This document shows positions 2,445 to 43,967 of a stretch of 64,000 nt of DNA, piece by piece (the first letter of the stretch is position 1; each line of letters begins with the position of its first letter). The notes beneath the pieces are model-generated. The model was not told the origin of the DNA and ran no database searches. It saw only the letters and a program-made list of their open reading frames with translations. The position numbers and the translations under genes are program-made. Source of the stretch: Nitrospinota bacterium (lineage in GTDB: Bacteria > Nitrospinota_A > UBA7883 > JACRGQ01); contig JACQEX010000074.1 in NCBI GenBank assembly GCA_016200345.1, positions 671 through 64,670 of the forward strand, written 5' to 3'.

Positions 2445-2569
2445 CAGCGTATTGTCTCAAATTTTTGTTCTAACAGACACTTGCATTTATGAACGTATTA
2501 TTAATTTACGTCCGGCACAGATTTTATCTTGCAAAACGGGCAAGCTTTGATAGAGTAACCCGGTTGTGG

Positions 2570-2726
2570 CTAGTGTAGTGTCCCAGCATCTCCTTTACAG
2601 GCGGTGCATGCACCAACACGAATTGGTAGCAACGGGATTCATCCTGTTTCTGCGCCCGCAGGGCGCAAGGCAGGCTAAAGCCCGCCGCTACCATAGCGTA
2701 GTTATTTTACTGGGACACTACACTAG
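2570..2726. repeat. palindromic composite repeat (family 1, copy 1): revcomp(B)-A-linker-B'
   Basis: Terminal inverted repeats ctagtgtagtgtcccag ... ctgggacactacactag. Central 70-nt module A (2624-2693) is closed by tggtagc/gctacca and contains the hairpin gcgccc-gca-gggcgc. A related copy lies at 27741-27864. Confidence 0.6.
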
Positions 2727-2749: not shown

Positions 2750-5700
2750 TTGCAAGGAAGTGACGGCATAATAAAAATGAGCGAAGAAAAAATTAACGAG
2801 GGGCTTTACGACCCTTCTTTCGAGCACGACGCCTGCGGGGTCGGTTTTGTGGCGAATCTGCACTCCAAGAAATCCCATGAAATCGTAAGAAACGGGGTGC
2901 GGATACTGGAGAACCTAGAACACCGGGGCGCGTCTGGCGCCGAGAAAAACTCGGGCGACGGCGCCGGAATTACGATCCAACTGCCGGACGAATTCCTTAG
3001 AATCGAGTGTAAAAAACTGGGTTTCGAATTGCCAGAGCCCGGATTCTACGGCGTTGGCATGTTGTTCCTCCCGAAGGACGACGGCGGGCGGAAAACCGTC
3101 ATGGCCGTTTATCAGAAATGCGTGGAGGAATCGGGCCAGGTGCTTTTGGGCTGGCGGCGCGTTCCGACCGACAACAAGGAGCTTGGCGCCACGGCGGTCA
3201 ATTCAGAGCCTTACGTCGCGCAGGTGTTCGTTAAGCGCGGAAGTAACGCGCCGGACCACGACTCCTTCGAGCGAAAACTCTACGTCATCCATCGCTATGC
3301 AAAGCGGCGTGTGCAGGAGTGCGGCGCCAAGGACTCGGATATGTTCTACACCGTGTCGCTTTCCAGCAAGACAATGACGTACAAGGGGATGCTCACGGCC
3401 ACGCAGTTGTCGGGGTATTTTCCCGACCTTAGCGACCCTTCGCTAAAATCCGCCATCGCCATGGTTCACAGCCGGTTTTCGACCAACGTCATGCCGTCGT
3501 GGCCTTTGGCGCACCCGTTTAAATACATCGCCCACAACGGGGAAATTAACACCCTTCGTGGAAACATAAATTGGATGAGGGCGAGAGAGGCCATTTTTGA
3601 GGCTGACCTTTTCACAAAGGAAGAACTGGATAAAATTCGCCCCGTCATAGACGACAGAAAATCCGACAGCGCGATTTTAGACTCCGTCGTCGAGCTTCTC
3701 GTGATGAACGGCAGAAGCCTGCCGCACGTGATGATGATGCTGGTGCCCGAGGCCTGGGCCCGCGACAAGGAGATGAGCGCCTCGAAAAAGGCTTTTTACG
3801 AATATCACGCCACTCTGATGGAGCCGTGGGACGGCCCCGCCTCCATCGCGTTTACGGACGGGCGCATCATCGGCGCGACGCTTGATAGAAACGGGCTTAG
3901 GCCGTCGCGCTACTGTTTGACAAACGACGGGACGCTTGTGATGAGCTCCGAGGCGGGCGTGCTGGATTTCAAGCCCGAGGACGTCAAGCTAAAGGGAAGG
4001 TTGCAACCGGGACGAATGTTCGTCGCGAGCCTCGACGAAGGGAGAATAATCCCCGACGAGGAGATAAGACAGAGAATAGCCGGTTCACAGCCTTACGAAA
4101 AATGGCTTAAGGAGGGAAAGCTGGAGCTTTCCGATTTGCCGGACGTTAAGTCGCCCCACAGGCACGATTTCGCCACGCTCGTAAAAAGGCAGTCCGCGTT
4201 CGGCTACACGTTCGAGGACTTAAAATTAATCCTTGCGCCCATGGCCGACAACGGCGAGGAGCCTCTGGGCTCCATGGGAAGCGACACTCCGCTTGCCGTG
4301 CTTTCGGACAAGCCGCAACTGCTCTTCAATTATTTTTACCAGCTTTTCGCGCAGGTTACGAACCCGCCCATTGACTCCATCAGGGAGGAGTCGGTCATGT
4401 CGCTGGTCTCCTTCATCGGCTCGCAGGGCCAGATTCTTTCCGAGTCGCACGAGCACTGCCGCGTGGTGGAGATTCCCAACCCGGTACTCTCCAACGACGA
4501 GCTTGAAAAAATAAGGGCAATCAAGCACCCGCTTTTCGGATCCGTGACGATACCCGCGCTGTTCCCGGCGGTTGAAAAGGGGGGTAAAAGCCTGGAGTCC
4601 GCGTTGGATAAAATTTGCGCCCTTGCAAGCTCGGCGGTGGCGGAGGGGAAAAACATAATTATTTTGAGCGACAGAGGCGTTGACGAAAACAACGCCGCCA
4701 TCCCGTCGCTCCTTGCCGTGTCGGCCGTGCACCACCATTTGATACGAGAGGGGACGCGGGCCAAATGCGGGATAATCATAGAAACCGGCGAGGCGAGGGA
4801 GGTGCACCACTTCGCGCTTCTTTTGGGTTTTGGCGCTACGGCCATAAACCCGTACCTTGCTTTTGAGTCAATAGCCGACCTTATTGACAGAAAGTTTCTC
4901 GAGACCGTCGCCTCCGAGGAAAAGGCGAAAAAGAATTTTATCAAGGCCGTGGAAAAGGGGCTTTTGAAGACGATTGCAAAGATGGGCATCTCCACAATTC
5001 AATCGTACATCGGGGCGCAGATATTCGAGGCCGTGGGCCTCGGCGACGGGTTCGTCGAAAAATATTTTACGAAAACGGCCTCGCGAATCGGCGGCGTGGG
5101 CGCGGAGGCCATCGAAAAAGAGGCGTTGATTCGGCACCTCTCCGCGAACCCCGGCGGCAGTCCGATTCAAGACACGGATTTAGAGCCGGGCGGACAATAC
5201 TACTGGAGGGCGCGGGGCGAGAAGCACACGATAAACCCGGAGACCGTGCAACAACTCCAAAACGCCGTGCGAAAAAACGACTTCACGGCGTTCAAGCAGT
5301 TCTCCAAGACCGTCACCGAAACGTCGGGCCTCAACACGCTAAGGGACTTGCTTGAATTCACAAATTTCGCCCCTGTTCCCATCGAGGAGGTGGAGCCCGC
5401 GGAAAAGATAGTGAAACGGTTTTTCACCGGCGCGATGTCGTTTGGCTCCATCAGCAAGGAGGCCCACGAAACAATCGCGATTGCGATGAACCGGCTTGGC
5501 GCAAAAAGCAACACCGGAGAGGGCGGAGAGGATCCCGAAAGGTTCAAAAAACTTCCGAACGGCGATTTTCCGCGTTCGGCAATCAAGCAAGTCGCGTCCG
5601 GCCGGTTCGGTGTGACGTCCAACTATCTTGTCAACGCCGACGAATTGCAAATAAAAATGGCGCAGGGTGCGAAGCCGGGCGAAGGCGGCCAGCTCCCCGG

Positions 5701-7312
5701 CAAGAAAGTGGACAAGACGATAGCCAAAGTAAGGCACTCCACTCCGGGCGTGGGGCTTATATCCCCGCCGCCGCACCACGACATTTATTCAATCGAGGAT
5801 TTGGCACAGCTGATTTTTGACCTTAAGAACGCCAATAATCGAGCGAGGATTAACGTAAAACTCGTCTCCGAGGCTGGCGTAGGCACAATCGCCGCCGGAG
5901 TTGCAAAAGGCCACGCGGAGGCGGTCCTCATTTCGGGGCATGACGGCGGAACGGGAGCCTCGCCCCTAAGCTCGATTAAACACGCCGGTCTCCCATGGGA
6001 GCTTGGCCTTGCCGAGACCCACCAGGTGCTTATGAGGAACGACCTAAGAAGCAGAATTGTGGTGCAGGCCGACGGAAGAATTATAACCGGGCGGGACGTG
6101 ATGATTGCCACACTGCTTGGGGCCGAGGAGTGGGGCGCCGCGACGACCGCGCTTGTCTCCGCCGGTTGCATAATGATGCGAAAGTGCCATTTGAACAACT
6201 GCCCGGTAGGGGTTGCCACACAGGATCCGGATCTTAGGAAGAACTTCATGGGCAAGCCGGAGCACGTCGTAAACTTCTTCATGTTTTTGGCGACGGAGCT
6301 GAGGGAGCACATGGCAAAGCTCGGCTTTAAAACCGTGAACGAGATGGTCGGAAGGACCGACAAGCTAAAGGTCAAGGACAACATTACGCACTACAAGGCG
6401 AGGCACGTGGAGGCCGGTAAACTTTTGACCCAGGCGAAATCAAGCGTCTGCGCACCCTACTGTTGCGAGAGGCAGGATTTCGGGCTTGACGGGGTTTTGG
6501 ACCACCAACTTATCGCGTTGGCGAAACCGGCGTTGGAGTCCGGCAAAAAAGTCGCCGGCGAGTTTAAAATCAGAAACGTCAACCGCGCGGTCGGCTCGAT
6601 GCTTTCCGCCGAAATTTCGCGCAAGTACGGCGAGAACGGACTGCCCGACGACACGATAAAAATTAAGCTTACCGGAACGGCGGGGCAAAGCTTCATGGCG
6701 TTCGGCGCGAAGGGGATGACGTTCGAGCTGGAAGGGGAGGCGAACGATTATTTTTGCAAGGGGCTTTCCGGCGCAAAGGCCGTTCTTTACCCGGACAAAC
6801 GCTCCAAGTACAAGGCGAACGAAAACGTGATACTCGGAAACGTCGCATTCTACGGCGCCACCAGCGGGGTCGCGTTTATTCAGGGAATGGGCGGAGAAAG
6901 ATTCTGCGTTAGAAATTCCGGCGCAAACGTGGTGGTCGAGGCGGTGGGAGACCACGGTTGCGAATACATGACCGGGGGAAGGGTTGTCATACTCGGCCCG
7001 GTGGGCAAAAATTTCGCCGCCGGAATGAGCGGAGGAATAGCGTATATTTTGGATTTGGACGGGGCCTCGCGACCAAGGGTCAACAAAGGCCTCGTAGGGC
7101 TGGAAGGCCTTGTGGACGCGGAGGAGGTTGACTTCGTAAAAGGTTTTATCGAGCAACATTTCAACCACACGAACAGCACGCACGCGAAATGGGTGTTGGA
7201 CAACTGGAGGGACGTTCTCCCCAAGTTTATCAAGGTGATGCCGGAGGATTATAAGAAGGTTCTGGAGGAAACGTCCGCATTGACTAAAAAAGGAGTTGTG
7301 TCGGCGGTTTAA
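2750..7312 (+). CDS. gltB: glutamate synthase large subunit
   Basis: N-terminal amidotransferase motif [14 protein letters not shown] with the nucleophile Cys after the initiator region. 1520 aa with FMN and GXGXG domains. The probable real start is the ATG at 2777 (MSEEKINEG...). Confidence 0.95.
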
Positions 7313-7332: not shown

Positions 7333-8799
7333 ATGGGAAAAATAAACGGCTTCAAGGAATTTAACAGAAAAACCCAGCAGTACCAGCCTGTCGAGCAGAG
7401 AATAAAAAATTATTCCGAGTTCGTGATACAACTCGCCGAAGGAGAGTTGCAAAACCAAGGAGCAAGATGTCTGGAGTGCGGCACTCCGTTTTGCCAGCCC
7501 AACTGCCCGCTTAACAACGTGCCGCCGGATTTTAACGACCTGGTTTTTCGCGGCAAGTGGCGGGAGGCGTTAAAAGTCCTTCTAAGCACGAACAACTTCC
7601 CGGAGTTTACGGGCAGACTCTGTCCGGCGCTGTGCGAGGCCGGTTGCGTGCTTGGTTTGATAGACAAACCGGTCACCATCAAGAACATCGAGCTTTCGAT
7701 AATTGAGCGCGGCTTTAGGGAAGGGTGGATTAAACCCGAGCCTCCCGCGCATAGAACGGGAAAAAAGGTGGCCGTTGTCGGATCCGGCCCGTCGGGTTTG
7801 GCCGTTGCCGCCCAGTTAAACAAAGCCGGACACGAGGTTACGGTTTTCGAGAGGGCGGATAGAATCGGCGGACTGCTAAGATACGGCATACCGGATTTTA
7901 AACTGGACAAAGGCGTCATTGACCGGCGCGTGGCCGTAATGGCCGGGGAAGGGGTCAAGTTCGTTACAAGCGCGGACGTGGGAAACACCGTTTCCGCGAA
8001 AAAGATTAAAAGCGAGTTCGACGCGGTTGTTCTCGCCGCCGGCGCCACCATTCCGCGCGATTTGCCGATACCGGGCCGGGACGCTAAAGGCGTGCACTTC
8101 GCCGTGGAATTTTTAAGGCAAAACAACATGCGCGTCGCCGGCGACGTAATCCCAAAACGGGAGGAGATTCTTGCCACGGGAAAACACGTGCTTGTAATTG
8201 GCGGCGGCGACACCGGCTCGGATTGCGTCGGCACATCCATACGGCAGGGAGCCGCGTCCGTCACGCAAATCGAGCTGTTGGACAAACCTCCGGCCTGGAG
8301 AACCGAGGAGACAAAGTGGCCGACCTTCCCCGGCCCGAAAATGCTTTCCACATCCACCTCGCAAGAGGAGGGATGCACGAGGGAGTGGTCGGTTTTGTCC
8401 AAGGAATTTCTTAAGGATGACAAAGGAAACCTGACCGGAGTAAGACGCGTTCAGTTAAAGTGGATAAACAACGCCAAGTTTGAGGAAGTTCCCGGCTCCG
8501 AGGCCGTGTACAAGGCGGACCTCGCATTTTTAGCGATGGGCTTTCTGCACACCAATCCCAAGGGGGTTGTGGGGGAGCTTGGTTTGCAAATTGACGCACG
8601 GGGAAACGTCCAAACGGACGGCGGATACCAAACGAACGTCCCCGGGGTTTTTGCGGCGGGCGACGCCAGAAGGGGACAGTCCCTCATCGTATGGGCCATA
8701 TCCGAAGGGCGCGAGTGCGCCAGGGCGGTTGACGTTTATCTTTCCGGCTCCACTAGGCTGGAGTCAAAAAACCAAACGCTAAGCGACTCTCTCCGCTAA
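7333..8799 (+). CDS. gltD: glutamate synthase small subunit (NADPH)
   Basis: Two Cys clusters ([24 protein letters not shown]), a FAD/NAD Rossmann motif [15 protein letters not shown], and a 4-nt-scale gap after gltB. Confidence 0.9.
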
Positions 8800-8870: not shown

Positions 8871-8972
8871 GGTGGGTACACCATTCTTGGTGTACCTTGC
8901 CGCGCAAGCGGCAATGATTTTATCGGCCTTGACAGGCCGATGTACACCCTAAAGGGCGTACCCACCGGAAAT
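8871..8972 (+). ncRNA. candidate structured RNA element (family 2, copy 1), unclassified
   Basis: Four consecutive hairpins: ggtacacc-attctt-ggtgtacc; gccgc-GCAA-gcggc (GNRA loop); atcggcc-ttgac-aggccgat; gtacaccc-taaa-gggcgtac; then ccaccggaaat. Compensatory base changes relative to the copy at 43700-43764. Confidence 0.4.
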
Positions 8973-8996: not shown

Positions 8997-10724
8997 TCAC
9001 CCGACGTATCGTTTTACCCTCGGGAGAAAATCGTCCACGACGATCTGTTTTGTAAGAAAATCTTTTGCTCCCAGCCCGTAGACGGTCTCTCGAATCTCCA
9101 TTCCGTGCTTGCCGGATATGATCATGACGGGGATTGATTTTGTGTCGTTCCTATTTTGGAGGTATGCGAGAAGATCCAGCCCGGACATTGTGGGCATCTC
9201 TATGTCGGAAATAATCAGATGCGGCAGGGCCACTTTCCCGGAGAGCATATTGACCGCCTTCGAGCCGTCGTCCGCCTCGGAAACCATCGCGCCGACCTTC
9301 TTTAAGTAATGGCCGACGAGATGGCGGAAATTCTGGTCGTCGTCCACCACCAATATTCGCGGGCGTACGCTTGGGAGCCTCAGGGTAAAGGCGGAGCCTT
9401 TGCCAAGTTCGGATTGAACCTCCATGCCTCCGCCGTGCCAGGCCATGATGTCCTTGGTAAGTTGTAGTCCGATGCCTGCGCCCGCAACCGAGGCGAGCCC
9501 CGCGGACCTTGAATCGTAGTTTATAACGGCGGAAAGTTTTTCTTTTTCCATTCCGGGGCCGTTGTCGGAAACTCTTATGGACGTGTTGTCCCCCTCGTTG
9601 AAGGAGATTACAACCTCATCGCCGCTTTGGCAGTATTTGAGGGCGTTTGTAACGAGGTTTTGCAAAGCCTCGTACAGCAGGATTTTATCGGCATAAATCC
9701 TGCTATTGTGGCGGATTTCATTTACGAGTTTGATGCGCCGATTTTCCGCAACATGACGAAATGCCTCGCAGGCCTTGGCCGAAAGAAGACTCGCGTCGAA
9801 AAACTGTTTTTTCAGCTTCAGCTCGCCGGACCTAAGCCTGCTGAGGTTCAACACGTCGTCAATGAGCCTGCTAAGGGATTTTCCAGACTTGATGGCGCTT
9901 GTAAGAGCGTCGAGCCCGTGTTTTTCAATCGGTTTTTCGGCGTCATTTTCCAATAGCTCCAAAAGGCCTATCATGGAGGCGAGCGGACTTTTTAGGTCGT
10001 GGGCCACGAGGGAGACGAATTTATCCTTCAGCCTTGTCGCCTCCTCGGCCTGCTCCTTTGCCGCGCGAATCGCCTCGTCGGCCTTTTTTCGCTCGGTTAC
10101 GTCGCGCATGCTAAGAACGTACTGGACCTCTCCGCGAAAGATGCATTCCGACACGAAAAGCTCGAAGTCGGTGAATTCGCCCGATTTTTTCAGTCCCTCC
10201 GCCGACACAGCCCTTTCGCGTATCTCGCCCTCCCAGCCGGAAAGAAAAGAGGTATAGCCCTCGACGAGGATTTTGAGATGGTCCTTGGGGATGATGGCGG
10301 AGATGTGTTTTTCCACCAACTCGCTTCCGGCGTAACCCAAAAGGCGGTGGGCCGCGCGGTTGGCCATTTTAATGACGCCTTTAGCGTCAACCCTCATTAT
10401 TCCGTCCGGGGCCGACTCCAACACTGTGTTTACATCGGCCTCCGAGGCGGAAAGCTCGGCCGTGCGCTCCCTGTTTTTGGTTGTTTCTTCCGAAACGCGC
10501 AGATATTGCCGGTGCACCAAAAAATAATAAAGCGGGATTAGGGTCAGGGTCATCGCAAACGCCTCGGCAAAATCGCGCCCCCAAACGGAACCCGAGCCTG
10601 TTTTGAAGGCTACGAACTCGGTGAGTTGGTCCACCGCCATAATGCCGATAAAAAACAAAACGGCGAAAATAAACAGCCGAACCCTTCCACCGGAAAATTT
10701 AGCCACGTTCCAGCTTTCTTTCAT
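8997..10724 (-). CDS. hybrid sensor histidine kinase/response regulator (TM-PAS-HisKA-HATPase-REC)
   Basis: H-box [14 protein letters not shown]-box regions, C-terminal receiver ILVVDDD...ISDIEMP...IISGK. Paralogous to 45546..47537 (same C-terminal PRV(K/R)R(Y/F)VG). Confidence 0.85.
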   Translation of the reverse strand: MKESWNVAKFSGGRVRLFIFAVLFFIGIMAVDQLTEFVAFKTGSGSVWGRDFAEAFAMTLTLIPLYYFLVHRQYLRVSEETTKNRERTAELSASEADVNTVLESAPDGIMRVDAKGVIKMANRAAHRLLGYAGSELVEKHISAIIPKDHLKILVEGYTSFLSGWEGEIRERAVSAEGLKKSGEFTDFELFVSECIFRGEVQYVLSMRDVTERKKADEAIRAAKEQAEEATRLKDKFVSLVAHDLKSPLASMIGLLELLENDAEKPIEKHGLDALTSAIKSGKSLSRLIDDVLNLSRLRSGELKLKKQFFDASLLSAKACEAFRHVAENRRIKLVNEIRHNSRIYADKILLYEALQNLVTNALKYCQSGDEVVISFNEGDNTSIRVSDNGPGMEKEKLSAVINYDSRSAGLASVAGAGIGLQLTKDIMAWHGGGMEVQSELGKGSAFTLRLPSVRPRILVVDDDQNFRHLVGHYLKKVGAMVSEADDGSKAVNMLSGKVALPHLIISDIEMPTMSGLDLLAYLQNRNDTKSIPVMIISGKHGMEIRETVYGLGAKDFLTKQIVVDDFLPRVKRYVG

Positions 10725-27740: not shown

Positions 27741-27864
27741 TGGTAGCAACGGGATTCATCCTGTTGTTGCGCCCGTAGGGCGCAAGGCAGGCTAAAGCCC
27801 GCCGCCACCAATTCGTGTTGGTGCATGCACCGCCCGTAAAGGAGGTGCTGGGACACCACACTAG
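27741..27864. repeat. family 1 repeat, copy 2 (A-B in direct order)
   Basis: tggtagcaacgggattcatcctgtt…gcgcccgtagggcgc…gccacca followed by attcgtgttggtgcatgcacc…ctgggacaccacactag. Starts 5 nt after the lexA stop, 75 nt before tRNA-Val. Confidence 0.6.
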
Positions 27865-27938: not shown

Positions 27939-28014
27939 CGGGCGAATAGCTCAGTTGGTAGAGCGCCAGCCTTACAAGCTGGATGCCACAGGTTCGAGCC
28001 CTGTTTCGCCCACC
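27939..28014 (+). tRNA. tRNA-Val (anticodon TAC), CCA encoded
   Basis: GGGCGAA acceptor stem, D-arm TAGCTCAGTTGGTAGAGCG, anticodon stem-loop CCAGC-CTTACAA-GCTGG, T-arm GGTTCGAGCCC, 3' CCA. A TATAAT box lies about 20 nt upstream. Confidence 0.85.
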
Positions 28015-28318
28015 AAATAAACAAAACAATCCCTCCGGGCATTGTTTTGTTTATTTCATCGGTTTGCGACAGGGCTCGAAAGCAAACTCCCGGAGCGAGC
28101 CGGCGAGCTCAAACGGACAGGACGTCCGTTTAGGGAGTTTGTCGGGCCTGATGGAGCAACAACAGGATGTTGTTGCGAGAGCAGGCGACCCTGTTTCGCC
28201 CACCAAATAAACAAAACAATCCCTCCGGGCATTGTTTTGTTTATTTCGTCGGTTTGCGACAGGGCTCGAAAGCAAACTCCCGGAGCGAGCCGGCGAGCTC
28301 AAACGGACAGGACGTCCG
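27998..28318 (+). repeat. two 131-nt direct repeats (27998-28128 and 28188-28318, 1 mismatch) separated by 59 nt
   Basis: Each unit comprises the last 17 nt of tRNA-Val (ccctgtttcgcccacca), the terminator hairpin, and ~70 nt downstream. The second unit carries only the tRNA 3' fragment. Confidence 0.8.
28015..28056 (+). terminator. rho-independent terminator after tRNA-Val
   Basis: aaacaaaacaatccctccgggcattgttttgttt hairpin followed by a T-rich tail. An identical copy lies at about 28205-28246. Confidence 0.6.
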
Positions 28319-28404
28319 TCCCGGCCTCTGACACAAGATTTAATACATCACCGACGATGCTGACCAATTTGACTATTTCTATCGGGGCGCATATCATTTT
28401 CTTT

Positions 28405-29127
28405 ATGAAAAACATACTAAACAAATTGCGCGGAAAGAACCTCAGGATTTTTCTATTTTCAGTTTTTTTTGTAGTGGCGCATTCACCAATTGAAACCTAT
28501 GCCGCAGACACTACAAAAATTGGCCCTGCGGAAAAGGTTGCAAACTCTTACGACTCCTTGACTATAATCACGATCTTTGCAATTTTTCTTGCACCTGTAA
28601 TAGCTATACAGGCGCAGGTGTACCTTGAGCAAAAACGGGAGAAAAAACGAGGCAAGGCACAAGTATTTATTACGTTAATGGCAACTAGGGCCACACCAAC
28701 ATCTGCCGCATCGGTTGAGGCATTAAACCGCATAGACATCGCTTTCCATAAGGACAAAAAAATTAAAGATGCATGGCGAGCCTTGCTTGATGTTTACGAC
28801 AATTTTCCAAAAGATATTAACGACGGCGATTATTCTCGCAAACTACAGTTGAGCAACGAAAAGGCCGTGGAAGAGCGCATAAATTTATTATATGAAATGG
28901 CACAGTCGTTAAAATTTGATTTTGACAAGGTTCATCTGAAGAGAGCGTGTTACTACCCTGCAGGACATAATTTCCTTGAAAATGAGCAGAGCATAATCAG
29001 AGGAGGCCTGGCACAAATTTTGACGGGCAACAAGGCATTCCCAATTTTTCTTGTAAATCCAACCAATCAACCTCCTGCGGAAGGCCATAACGAAAAAGGC
29101 CCAAAAGAAATAGCCAACAAGTCATGA
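28405..29127 (+). CDS. hypothetical secreted/membrane protein
   Basis: Signal-peptide-like N-terminus MKNILNKLRGKNLRIFLFSVFFVVAHSPIETYA, one further TM helix, Lys-rich linker. Low-GC gene. The upstream part of listed ORF 28042.. runs across the tRNA duplicate and terminators and is discounted. Confidence 0.5.
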   Translation: MKNILNKLRGKNLRIFLFSVFFVVAHSPIETYAADTTKIGPAEKVANSYDSLTIITIFAIFLAPVIAIQAQVYLEQKREKKRGKAQVFITLMATRATPTSAASVEALNRIDIAFHKDKKIKDAWRALLDVYDNFPKDINDGDYSRKLQLSNEKAVEERINLLYEMAQSLKFDFDKVHLKRACYYPAGHNFLENEQSIIRGGLAQILTGNKAFPIFLVNPTNQPPAEGHNEKGPKEIANKS

Positions 29128-29412: not shown

Positions 29413-29718
29413 ATGGACGCGCTGGTTGAAAGAGTGACGAAAAAAATTGCGGAGAAGATACACCCGGACAAAATTATTTTGTTCGGGTCACGCGCAAAAG
29501 GCACGGCCACCGAGGAAAGCGATATTGATTTAGTCGTTGTCTATTCTGGCCCCAAGTCCGTCCGAGAAGTGGAAGTTGAAATTGACTGGCTTTTTATGCC
29601 GAGGGATTTTTCAATGGACGTCATCGTCATTAATCCGCAATATTTGGAGAAGTACAAAAGGATTGCAAATACCCTTGCCCGCGAGTTGGCTGAGAAAGGG
29701 GTCGTTTGTTATGGATGA
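29413..29718 (+). CDS. nucleotidyltransferase (MNT) antitoxin-like protein of a HEPN/MNT pair
   Basis: ILFGSRAKGTATEESDIDLVVV is the NTP_transf_2 signature. Listed ORF starts at 29332; the ~101-aa product from the ATG at 29413 (MDALVERV…) is more typical. Confidence 0.7.
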   Translation: MDALVERVTKKIAEKIHPDKIILFGSRAKGTATEESDIDLVVVYSGPKSVREVEVEIDWLFMPRDFSMDVIVINPQYLEKYKRIANTLARELAEKGVVCYG

Positions 29719-30034
29719 GGACAAGCGGATTACTGTTGGACATTGGTTGACCAAAGCGGAGAATGACATGGAAATGGCGCAACGCGCATTAGAGTGGGCG
29801 CCTATTATTACCGATATGGCCTGTTTCCACGCCCAGCAGTGCGCCGAAAAATCATTAAAGGCCTTTCTCGTTTTTATGGACAGCCACGTTGACCAAATCC
29901 ATGACTTGGGCAAACTGGTTGGAAAGTGCGACGTCCTCGACCCCTCATTTTCTAACCTACATCCTCTGGTTGCAGGCATGACGCGATACGCCGTCAAAGA
30001 CCGCTATACCGATGATTGGCGGGAAATCCTTTGA
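29711..30034 (+). CDS. HEPN-domain protein, C-terminally truncated by a 19-bp tandem duplication
   Basis: ATG overlaps the MNT stop (ATGGATGA). HEPN-like helices (…AQQCAEKSLKAFLVF…). The duplication of gattggcgggaaatccttt (30014-30032 / 30033-30051) creates TGA at 30032-30034. Without it the frame runs to 30125. Confidence 0.65.
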   Translation: MDEDKRITVGHWLTKAENDMEMAQRALEWAPIITDMACFHAQQCAEKSLKAFLVFMDSHVDQIHDLGKLVGKCDVLDPSFSNLHPLVAGMTRYAVKDRYTDDWREIL

Positions 30035-40138: not shown

Positions 40139-40891
40139 TTACGCGCCCCCTTTAAGGTAGATTACCGAGGGATCCAAGCCGTGCTCCTCGAGCAGGCGAT
40201 GGCGGCGTTTGCTCTTGGAAAGCTCCGCCACCTTGCTTTCGGGGTCGTCCAGATAGCCAAAGGTTATCGCCTTTGTCGGGCACGACTGGGCGCAGGCCGA
40301 AACAACCTCGCCGTCTTTGACCCCCCTCCCCTCGTCCTTGGCCTTGTCTTTGCCGCGTCGAATTCTTTGCATACAGAAGGTGCATTTTTCCATGACTCCG
40401 ACTTCACGAATTGAAACGTCGGGGTTTAACTGTTGCTCAAGCGGAGCCTCCCACTTGGAATTGAACCAGTTGAATTTTCTAACTCCGTACGGACAGTTGT
40501 TGGCGCAGAACCTAACGCCCATGCATCGGTTGTAGACCATGGCGTTCAACCCGTCCGGATTGTGGTAGGTGGCAAAAACCGGGCAGACCGGTTCGCACGG
40601 CGCCTTGCCGCACTGCTGGCACGGCATGGGCAAAAACACCACCCTAAGCTCGGGCCACTCCCCCTCGAAATACCGCTCGACCCTAAGCCACGACATGGTC
40701 CGTTTTTCGCGGGCCATTTTTTCGCCAACGACCGCTATGTTGTTCTCGGCCTGACAGGCGATGGTGCACGCGCCGCACCCGTTGCATTTGTCCAGGTCAA
40801 TGACCATGGCCCACTTATGATATTCGGTGTTAGAGTTGAAAGACTTCACCTTCGTAATCTCCTTTGGGGTTGCCTTCCCTAATAATTTCAA
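40139..40891 (-). CDS. actB: alternative complex III FeS subunit (ActB2; four-cluster ferredoxin)
   Basis: Multiple CxxCxxCxxxCP motifs (CNGCGACTIACQAEN…). Start ambiguous (40891 or the ATG at about 40810, MVIDLDKC…). Confidence 0.8.
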   Translation of the reverse strand: MKLLGKATPKEITKVKSFNSNTEYHKWAMVIDLDKCNGCGACTIACQAENNIAVVGEKMAREKRTMSWLRVERYFEGEWPELRVVFLPMPCQQCGKAPCEPVCPVFATYHNPDGLNAMVYNRCMGVRFCANNCPYGVRKFNWFNSKWEAPLEQQLNPDVSIREVGVMEKCTFCMQRIRRGKDKAKDEGRGVKDGEVVSACAQSCPTKAITFGYLDDPESKVAELSKSKRRHRLLEEHGLDPSVIYLKGGA

Positions 40892-43615: not shown

Positions 43616-43699
43616 TAAGATTATGTTAATTTGTCGTTTCTTTGGGTTGTTTTAAGGGGGGCGGGCAGTGGGCTCGGTAGGTACGGGCTTTAGTACTTT

Positions 43700-43764
43700 G
43701 CCGCGCAAGCGGCGTCGGCCTTTCCAAGCCGACGTACACACTAAAGTGTGTACCCACCGGAAAT
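43700..43764 (+). ncRNA. candidate structured RNA element (family 2, copy 2)
   Basis: gccgc-GCAA-gcggc; gtcggc-ctttccaa-gccgac; gtacacac-taaa-gtgtgtac; ccaccggaaat. Same order and spacing as 8899-8972. Confidence 0.4.
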
Positions 43765-43967
43765 TGTAATGCGGAATGAGAGGAAAATAATTTGGAAAAT
43801 ATTTTACCGGACACACCTTTTGGCATTGAATTTAGCCTTTCCAGGCCGACGTACACACTAAAGTGTGTACCCACCGGAAATTGTAATGCGGAATGAGAGG
43901 AAAATAATTTGGAAAATATTTTACCGGACACACCTTTTGGCATTGAATTTAGCCTTTCCAGGCCGAC
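43719..43967. repeat. 117-bp tandem direct repeat, about 2.1 copies
   Basis: The unit cctttcca(a/g)gccgacgtacacactaaagtgtgtacccaccggaaattgtaatgcgg…gcattgaatttag repeats at 43719, 43836 and 43953 (partial). It generates the spurious ORF 43626..43973(-) with repeated peptide. Confidence 0.85.

Follow-up and report, generated by a model that had tools for sequence, protein, structure and literature searches.

The window analyzed here is a 64,000-nt stretch of an uncultured Nitrospinota genome (GenBank assembly GCA_016200345.1, contig JACQEX010000074.1, positions 671 to 64,670), and its subject is a 157-nt palindromic repeat at window positions 2570 to 2726, 50 nt upstream of the start codon of gltB, the gene for the glutamate synthase large subunit. 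This repeat, copy W1 of what is termed family 1, was inserted at gltB; related copies lie dispersed over unrelated sites of three lineages, and the copies share sharp edges, a conserved architecture of tagged hairpins, and strong structure. An earlier note on this DNA had described the element from the letters alone, and its position, its 70-nt module A (with the closing stem TGGTAGC/GCTACCA and the internal hairpin gcgccc-gca-gggcgc), and its exact 17-bp terminal inverted repeats (TIRs) were all recovered. The note overlooked the GT[AG]G-tagged doublet architecture of module A and a second repeat family built on the same plan.

At the locus, gltD lies downstream of gltB, and a gene for a CHAD domain protein diverges upstream. 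The predicted GltB was 100% identical to the protein of an NCBI "Nitrospinae bacterium" metagenome-assembled genome (MAG), and its next relatives (79, 77, and 75% identical) led to three orthologous loci, L057, L058, and L059. The features of the locus, and those of the second copy in the window (W2), are listed with their coordinates and strands, with open reading frame abbreviated as ORF and repetitive extragenic palindromic as REP.

2529 to 2556, plus strand: putative gltB promoter, TTGCAA (2529 to 2534), a 16-nt spacer, and TGaTAGAGT (2548 to 2556), conserved in the three orthologous loci
2570 to 2726, no strand assigned: whole family-1 element, copy W1, 157 nt, made of a left arm, module A, and a short right arm
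2570 to 2586, plus strand: left TIR, CTAGTGTAGTGTCCCAG, with a GTAG tag at 2575 to 2578
2570 to 2623, minus strand: left arm, the reverse complement of module B (54 nt)
2624 to 2693, plus strand: module A, a 70-nt palindrome of palindromes with the closing stem given above
2626 to 2648, plus strand: REP-like unit a, GTAG, C, and the hairpin AACGGGA-TTCA-TCCTGTT (stem-loop at 2631 to 2648)
2651 to 2667, no strand assigned: spacer hairpin TGCGCCC-GCA-GGGCGCA between units a and b
2669 to 2691, minus strand: REP-like unit b, GTAG, C, and the hairpin GGCGGGC-TTTA-GCCTGCC (stem-loop at 2669 to 2686)
2694 to 2709, plus strand: inner right arm, short and A/T rich, TAGCGTAGTTATTTTA
2710 to 2726, minus strand: right TIR, the exact reverse complement of 2570 to 2586
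2777 to 7312, plus strand: gltB, a 1,511-amino-acid ORF starting with ATG at 2777 (Pfam GATase_2, Glu_syn_central, Glu_synthase, and GXGXG)
27741 to 27864, plus strand: family-1 copy W2, 124 nt, module A (27741 to 27810) and a full arm B (27811 to 27864), without a left arm
27848 to 27864, minus strand: terminal repeat of W2, CTAGTGTGGTGTCCCAG, differing from that of W1 only by GTGG in place of GTAG

Upstream of gltB, alignment and inspection of the sequences revealed a block common to the window, L057, L058, and L059 (TTGCAA-N16-TGaTAAAGT...GGTTGTGG). Judged by its conservation, this block reads as an extended -10 promoter of the sigma-70 type, and it scored below the threshold of the consensus scan. 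The fuller upstream block, GATTTT..CTTGCAAAA..N..CTTTGATAAAGTAA..GGTTGTGG, spanned positions 2505 to 2569 of the window, 7925 to 7987 of L057, 9875 to 9930 of L058, and 9893 to 9943 of L059, and probably serves as the gltB promoter, perhaps together with the site of a regulator. A sigma-54 promoter in this region was considered and, because the GG-GC spacing was wrong, rejected by eye.

The window tracked the conserved block through base 2569, and the 157 nt beginning at 2570 were found in none of the three orthologous loci, which shows W1 to be a lineage-specific insertion into the presumed 5' untranslated region (UTR) of gltB, a few bases downstream of the conserved putative promoter. The left edge of the insertion was the exact outer end of the terminal repeat. 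The leader measured 228 nt in the window compared to approximately 65 to 105 nt in the orthologues, and it would measure approximately 71 nt without the element. The right flank was too diverged to provide a clean empty site; short similarities restarted right after 2726 (TTGG...TGCC with L057 and TGGCCCAT with L059). When both CTAGs were counted as part of the insert, the flanks of the window and the orthologues (closest, L057, with 79% gltB identity) aligned without a gap, which is weak evidence that fits insertion without target duplication. Among the forms that an empty-site junction could take, GGTTGTGG joined directly to GTTGGCC corresponds to no duplication and GGTTGTGGCTAGGTTGG to CTAG kept once, in addition to forms like GGTTGTGGTAGTTGG. 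No direct repeat outside CTAG flanked W1, and a CTAG or TA duplication could hide inside its palindromic ends.

Because the putative promoter is upstream of W1, the element should be transcribed with the leader, and it is probably cotranscribed within the gltB 5' UTR at approximately +8 to +165. The predicted fold kept W1 as a closed domain, with the ribosome-binding site (RBS) and the ATG outside. Neither a terminator-like U-tract directly after a stem nor a notable intrinsic terminator or promoter-like site was found within W1. An invertible promoter was dropped as a candidate, since the arms are symmetric, so that the orientation of module A is undefined, and no promoter-like site lies inside.

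The TIR CTAGTGTAGTGTCCCAG matched three times in the window (0.05 expected; 0 of 100 dinucleotide shuffles reached three), the third time with one mismatch at 27848 to 27864. Module B occurred as its reverse complement at 2570 to 2623 and directly at 27811 to 27864, with 51 of 54 positions identical. The left arm of W1 holds a small hairpin, GCATCTCC-TTTAC-AGGCGGTGC, and a 12-bp palindrome, GGTGCATGCACC, that was not conserved in copies from two other loci (L017 and L022, described below), and the arms of family 1 carry the tag as well (CTAGT-GTAG-TGTCCC). The earlier account of module B held for the palindrome and for the reverse complement on the left, which measures 54 nt. The right arm (2694 to 2726) may not be the simple terminal fragment of B that had been described, because the last 20 nt of W1 (2707 to 2726, TTACTGGGACACTACACTAG) recur unchanged at the right end of the copy in L017, whose right arm is longer and diverged. 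The inner right arm is either a deletion derivative or a variant of the full arm, and a terminator-like match to it was weak.

In module A, two GT[AG]G-tagged 7-bp hairpins face each other head to head around a hairpin spacer. On the plus strand, its parts follow in the order TG; GTAG-C and AACGGGA-TTCA-TCCTGTT; TGCGCCC-GCA-GGGCGCA; GGCAGGC-TAAA-GCCCGCC and G-CTAC; and CA, with 7-bp stems and 4-nt loops in both units. Module A recurred in W2 with 94% identity. The hairpin of unit a was invariant across five copies, the spacer hairpin kept its stem with a variable loop, and unit b had two pairs altered on both sides in L017 (G-C to A-U).

Predicted folds of the element were far more stable than those of shuffled controls, both as RNA (positions 2560 to 2740, -89.5 kcal/mol, z = -6.4) and as single-stranded DNA (positions 2570 to 2726, -43.2 kcal/mol, z = -9.2), and the whole unit can fold into one long hairpin or cruciform. 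Module A itself had two possible folds, a cloverleaf made up of three 7-bp hairpins and a single long hairpin, with approximately 91 to 93% of bases paired across copies in both. On the minus strand, the fold of module A was more stable in five of five copies, owing to G-U pairs, and the long hairpin was the minimum-free-energy structure there in all copies; this pattern is inherited and hence is not independent evidence. The two sites changed on both sides in L017 preserve the local hairpin and disrupt the long one, and covariation counts over five sequences did not separate the cloverleaf from the long hairpin.

W2 begins 4 nt past the stop codon of lexA and ends 75 nt before a tRNA-Val gene. 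In L069, which is from the same MAG as L059, lexA is also followed by tRNA-Val, and the 174-nt spacer between them lacks the element; L064, whose LexA is 84% identical, has no element after lexA. Further copies were sought with an exact 18-mer of module A in one genome per species (185,579 representative genomes) and in metagenome contigs. The representative genomes yielded 18 loci, approximately the number expected by chance, and one of these was real (L017, in a Nitrospinales MAG). The other 17 were rejected as chance matches, several of them within coding sequence; in L004 and L013, for example, the matched letters encode the ATGFILF motif of a succinate dehydrogenase cytochrome b subunit. 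The metagenome contigs yielded 38 loci, of which 35 were rejected as chance matches and 3 were real (two in L022 and a truncated one in L028), all from one metagenome.

The six copies thus assembled (W1, W2, L017, L22a and L22b in L022, and L028) align over arm, module A, and arm, and they come from three lineages. Two arms were present only in W1 and L017. The L017 copy is a full element between convergent genes, with two diverged arms, the right one longer than that of W1 and the left one degenerate at its end. W2 consists of module A and a right arm, both L022 copies consist of a left arm and module A, and L028 has one arm. The neighbors of the copies are unrelated housekeeping genes (for cytochrome c', DUF3187, the Der GTPase, an amidotransferase, an MGS-like protein, and a multicopper oxidase), and all known copies are extragenic. 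A profile of the six copies (nhmmer) found no further family-1 copy in the related loci L057 to L059 and L062 to L069. In viral contigs, a 22-mer of module A had no matches and the TIR had two chance coding matches. The element had no blastn match in 72,556 plasmids or 50,697 phages, and the note's alternative of a known insertion sequence (IS) end gained nothing from this search. In Rfam, only tRNA-Val reached the gathering score in the window, and the best match within 2400 to 2800 had an E value of 2.4 at a permissive threshold.

Several local features were seen beside these copies and matches. In L028, a perfect 12-bp inverted repeat on the minus strand (1059 to 1030, TGGTAGTCTAGT-cttata-ACTAGACTACCA) closely precedes the RBS of a small ORF (MGYPTKVQLIKRKESEQWYINFPSAIAQAMEFEKGE...) beside the truncated family-1 copy. 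It starts with TGGTAG and contains CTAG, and it looks like the operator of an AbrB/antitoxin-like gene. Around a GIY-YIG-like ORF in two Patescibacteria MAGs that were matched by chance, the motif (TCT)AACAGGATGAATCC(CGTTAGA) recurs (L015, 2212 to 2223, 2323 to 2340, and 2607 to 2620; L001, 153 to 170, 1747 to 1760, and 1893 to 1906); it is an unrelated local repeat. Downstream of W2, a 131-nt direct repeat (27999 to 28129 and 28189 to 28319; 99% identical, 190-nt period) begins within the 3' end of tRNA-Val and takes in its terminator hairpin, with ORFs for DUF6680 (28042 to 29127) and HEPN (29537 to 30034) after it. Either a tandem duplication or an att-like scar, left by an element that integrated or was excised, could account for this repeat.

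Assembly break points provided evidence for the edges of the family and for additional copies. Logan short-read contigs from five runs were used, which were 100% identical to the sequence of this population. Logan assemblies are built with k = 31, and a contig that leaves unique sequence in a graph of this kind ends where the next k-mer would fall entirely within a repeat, at 1 unique base plus 30 repeat bases. This rule predicts ends at 2599 for a repeat starting at 2570 and at 27770 for a repeat starting at 27741. Both ends were found: three contigs from the CHAD gene ended at 2598, 2599, and 2568, and two from lexA ended at 27770 and 27775. As the contigs ended where k = 31 predicts and W1 and W2 share no 31-mer at the two break points, the community must hold at least one further copy whose terminus resembles that of W1 and whose module A starts like that of W2. 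Two of three gltD contigs ended at 8946, inside family 2 (see below). The right edge of W1 was not recovered from the gltD side, where the contigs were short and ended inside gltB.

A second intergenic repeat family (family 2) was present at 8871 to 8967, 43675 to 43759, and 43808 to 43876, with a 117-nt tandem duplication at 43718 to 43951, so that the 64 kb hold two family-1 and three family-2 modules. Its plan is TG-GTGG and GTACACCA-TTCT-TGGTGTAC, two spacer hairpins, and GTACACCC-TAAA-GGGCGTAC and CCAC-CG, that is, an outer TGGTGG/CCACCG stem enclosing GTGG/GTAG-tagged 8-bp hairpins with the loops TTCT and TTTA. Stem differences between its copies were compensated (CC/GG versus AC/GT). 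A covariance model of module A matched family 2 at 43675 to 43759 (E = 4e-4) and 8909 to 8967 (E = 3e-3), as well as a 93-nt palindrome at 8632 to 8724 of L068 (E = 2e-6). The latter, between rplS and lexA in MAG GCA_023248495.1, is armless, has four hairpins, and carries GTAC at the place of the GTAG tag; counted by eye, 27 of the first 34 nt of module A match it (79%), and its hairpin 1 is kept by compensatory changes (CCACAGG-GTTCAT-CCTGTGG in L068 compared to CAACGGG-ATTCAT-CCTGTTG). A GTGG-tagged hairpin like those of family 2 lies just after lexA in the same locus (9574 to 9597). The rplS terminator near the L068 palindrome (8530 to 8580) holds a hairpin, GGGATTCAcATCCC, that resembles hairpin 1 of module A.

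GTAG-tagged REPs are stem-loops with 6- to 13-bp stems, short loops, and GTAG (or the variants GTRG and GTGG) at one end, 0 to 2 nt away from the stem (Di Nocera et al. 2013, PMC3733652). They often form head-to-head dimers, whose conserved 20- to 100-bp spacers may hold stem-loops and which can fold as one large hairpin; several families occur per genome, mainly after genes, with frequent compensated stem changes and G-T pairs; and long TIRs can join degenerate GTAG units to unrelated stem-loops (PMC3733652). Module A and family 2 had every one of the sequence-level properties of this class. Stems and loops of these sizes were found in units a and b and in the 8-bp units of family 2, and GTAG or GTGG was found 1 nt before the stem in family 1 and immediately before it (0 nt) in family 2. 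The tag was present in W1, W2, L017, L22b, and L028 and was lost in one unit of L22a, the most decayed copy; the family-2 units of the window were tagged except for one degenerate unit at 43675. Module A also has the layout of a head-to-head dimer, or REPIN, with inverted units, tags outside, a spacer, and a possible long hairpin. Readings of the element as tRNA-like, as attC, as a retron, or as an IS200/IS605 end were rejected on anatomy (no ARAGORN or Rfam match, no reverse transcriptase or integrase gene nearby, and TIRs present). Elsewhere in the window, ARAGORN called a tRNA-Ala (anticodon AGC, 40578 to 40653, minus strand) that fell below the Rfam gathering score and inside a long ORF (40139 to 40891); it is probably a false positive.

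The reading preferred here, with a probability of roughly 0.5, is that the element is a nonautonomous, nested-palindromic intergenic repeat of the class that includes REPs, bacterial interspersed mosaic elements (BIMEs), and REPINs and that it belongs to a small family specific to an uncultured Nitrospinota lineage. REP-associated tyrosine transposases (RAYTs, or TnpA-REP enzymes) act on single-stranded REP hairpins and require the GTAG tetranucleotide (Corneloup et al. 2021, PMC8266576). They cleave at CT (or CA) 5' or 3' of the hairpin, with GTAG acting as a guide as in IS200/IS605 (PMC8266576). Mobilization of this type is suggested here by the tag, the armless relatives, the two independent one-arm copies, and the gap-free fit of the flanks, which needs no target duplication. 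In addition, both L022 copies combine one arm with module A and lack a second TIR, which is easier to reconcile with a mosaic of hairpin units than with a transposon bounded by two TIRs. A RAYT-type enzyme (Y1/HUH, IS200/IS605-like), encoded at another place in the genome, would generate copies in trans from hairpins of single-stranded DNA, with GT[AG]G as its guide and a cut at a nearby CT, and would leave no target duplication. Transcribed within the gltB 5' UTR, the element would fold into a very stable RNA domain that is closed in itself and does not occupy the RBS. An influence on gltB mRNA stability or processing is possible, and any such effect on gltBD (on mRNA stability or RNase III processing) would be a by-product and not an evolved switch.

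Several points weigh against this assignment. The exact-18-mer scans yielded one copy in the 185,579 representative genomes and three in the metagenome collection, and tens to hundreds of copies are usual in known REP families. The scanned ORFs of the window, the neighborhoods of the L022 and L017 copies, and the gene tables of L057 to L069 contained no RAYT or IS200-like gene. A tblastn search over 628 kb, a weak test, also found no RAYT. GT[AG]G is only a 4-mer, the two families are possibly homologous and so amount to one or two independent observations, and a generic scan for GT[AG]G-tagged hairpins was too noisy for measuring enrichment. Covariation over five to six sequences is not decisive (118 of 500 shuffles reached the observed count of two-sided changes). 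In the arms, 8 nt separate the tag from the nearest local hairpin, an atypical distance. Finally, a perfect 17-bp TIR ending in CTAG, with 20 of 20 terminal positions conserved across genera, would be expected of a miniature inverted-repeat transposable element (MITE) of the DDE type.

Such a classical MITE is the main alternative, one that is possible and on the whole doubtful. The element would be a deletion derivative of an IS with a DDE transposase (IS630/Tc1-mariner-like or IS5/IS701-like), moved by cut and paste through its TIRs, with module A as a passenger, and it would target CTAG or YTAR and duplicate TA or a tetranucleotide. IS630-like elements prefer CTAG and duplicate TA, and IS5/IS701-like elements prefer YTAR. 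The perfect TIRs stand at the very termini of W1, and intact ends read CTAG in four of five cases and TTAG in one. The identity of the terminal 20 nt between W1 and L017, despite the divergence of the adjoining arm, suggests a protein-binding end, and the outer TIR edge is where both the insertion and the break in the assembly graph fall. The size, the noncoding content, and the hairpin fold are also typical of bacterial MITEs such as Correia elements (PMC3733652). However, neither the window nor the related loci yielded a parent IS or a DDE transposase, no plasmid or phage record matched by blastn, and armless modules of the same plan exist in family 2 and L068. Two arms were present in only two of six copies, and the one-arm form is common to two independent copies. 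A target duplication is not demonstrable from a single intact copy, because CTAG is palindromic and merges with the TIR; the gap-free orthologue alignment favors no duplication. The earlier suggestion of a MITE-like element or mobile-element remnant was supported, in that the element is missing from three gltB leaders and from the lexA-tRNA-Val spacer, occurs in other intergenic contexts, and has edges that are assembly breaks.

An unlikely alternative is that the host selected the element as a structured RNA or DNA module (a cluster of mRNA-stabilizing or terminating/insulating hairpins), which reached a few loci by copying and was retained for what it does to neighboring genes, including tuning of gltBD expression from the 5' UTR. 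The very stable, self-contained folds on both strands agree with this, as does the maintenance of hairpins through compensatory changes; W1 is downstream of a conserved promoter, and most copies lie after genes or between convergent genes, as do transcribed REPs (PMC3733652). The G-U pairs that make the minus-strand fold of module A more stable in all five copies could also be read in its favor, but that strand is not the one transcribed with gltB or lexA. The module was also absent from orthologous leaders and spacers, had no Rfam match and no U-tract terminator, left the RBS outside the predicted fold, and decays by truncation.

An immobile neutral remnant, produced by chance or segmental duplication without a mobility mechanism, is very improbable. 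Its apparent copy number is low in public collections, and several copies are truncated, but the copies are at nonhomologous loci in three lineages with sharp common edges, the TIR and fold statistics are far beyond chance, and the contig breaks imply further identical copies. The earlier note had connected such a remnant with a family of only two copies and orthologous leaders without the element; the orthologous leaders do lack it, yet more than two copies exist.

A dedicated gltBD leader (a riboswitch, an attenuator, or a protein-binding operator for nitrogen control) is already largely refuted and scarcely credible: W1 does lie between the promoter and the gltB start codon with a strong fold, but three orthologous gltB leaders lack it, the same sequence follows lexA and occurs at unrelated loci in other genomes, no Rfam family matched, no alternative terminator/antiterminator folds and no U-tract were present, and the palindrome GGTGCATGCACC was not conserved between copies. 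The regulatory leader or attenuator proposed in the earlier note therefore does not stand as an evolved function, the element being lineage specific, without a U-tract after the stem, and without sequestration of the RBS or start codon in the fold.

For gltB, the caution is that its long structured leader is a recent passenger and not a conserved regulatory device. Because families of this kind break short-read MAG assemblies exactly at their edges, they are useful markers of assembly gaps and for strain typing. A bolder form of the preferred reading, and an improbable one as a whole, is that Nitrospinota carry an undescribed REP-RAYT-type system of three-tier nested GT[AG]G hairpins (arm, REP doublet, and spacer hairpin) whose gltB copy was co-opted for gltBD mRNA stability or processing; if true, it would link a selfish palindrome to nitrogen assimilation in relatives of nitrite oxidizers. 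A full-text literature search returned no paper linking tagged REP- or REPIN-like repeats with Nitrospinota.

Compared to known systems, the element shares with Correia elements (NEMIS) of Neisseria, RUP, ERIC/IRU, and Nezha (listed in PMC3733652) a noncoding length of 100 to 160 bp, TIRs, and a whole-element hairpin. Like these and other MITEs, it is near genes, would be cotranscribed in 5' or 3' UTRs, and has ends that include TA. It differs from them in having no demonstrable TA duplication, no related IS, mostly one-armed copies, an interior that is a tagged hairpin doublet and not simple unique sequence, and no detected integration host factor (IHF) site or outward promoter. With the TIR families and REP-plus-stem-loop chimeras of TIRtrons/TIRYT (PMC3733652), it shares long inverted repeats in which a (degenerate) GTAG unit is combined with unrelated stem-loops, and dispersed, moderately abundant families organized as dimers; those repeats are defined by an adjoining TIRYT/RAYT gene, unlike this element, for which no such gene is known.

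The comparison extends to REP/BIME of Escherichia coli, the REPINs of Pseudomonas, and the SMAGs of Stenotrophomonas (PMC3733652; Bertels and Rainey 2011, PMC3116915; PMC8266576). Unlike these, the element has no RAYT found so far and very few detected copies, and it carries an extra pair of 33- to 54-nt arms ending in a perfect 17-bp TIR, with an arm tag that is not beside a local stem. Like them, it has tagged 7- to 8-bp stems with 4-nt loops, inverted units with tags outside, and a conserved stem-loop spacer, and it can fold either into separate hairpins or into a single long one. Several families per genome, compensated stems, the known GTGG variant, and an extragenic location, mostly after genes or between convergent genes, are likewise common to both. 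The element is thus an ordinary object by class, a selfish or structural repeat and not a regulator dedicated to gltB; its three-layer build is unusual, and it is new for its phylum. Tagged REPs have been reported in Proteobacteria, Cyanobacteria, Chloroflexi, and the PVC group (PMC3733652), among which Nitrospinota does not figure, and confirmation would extend the known range of this old class of intragenomic replicators to that phylum.

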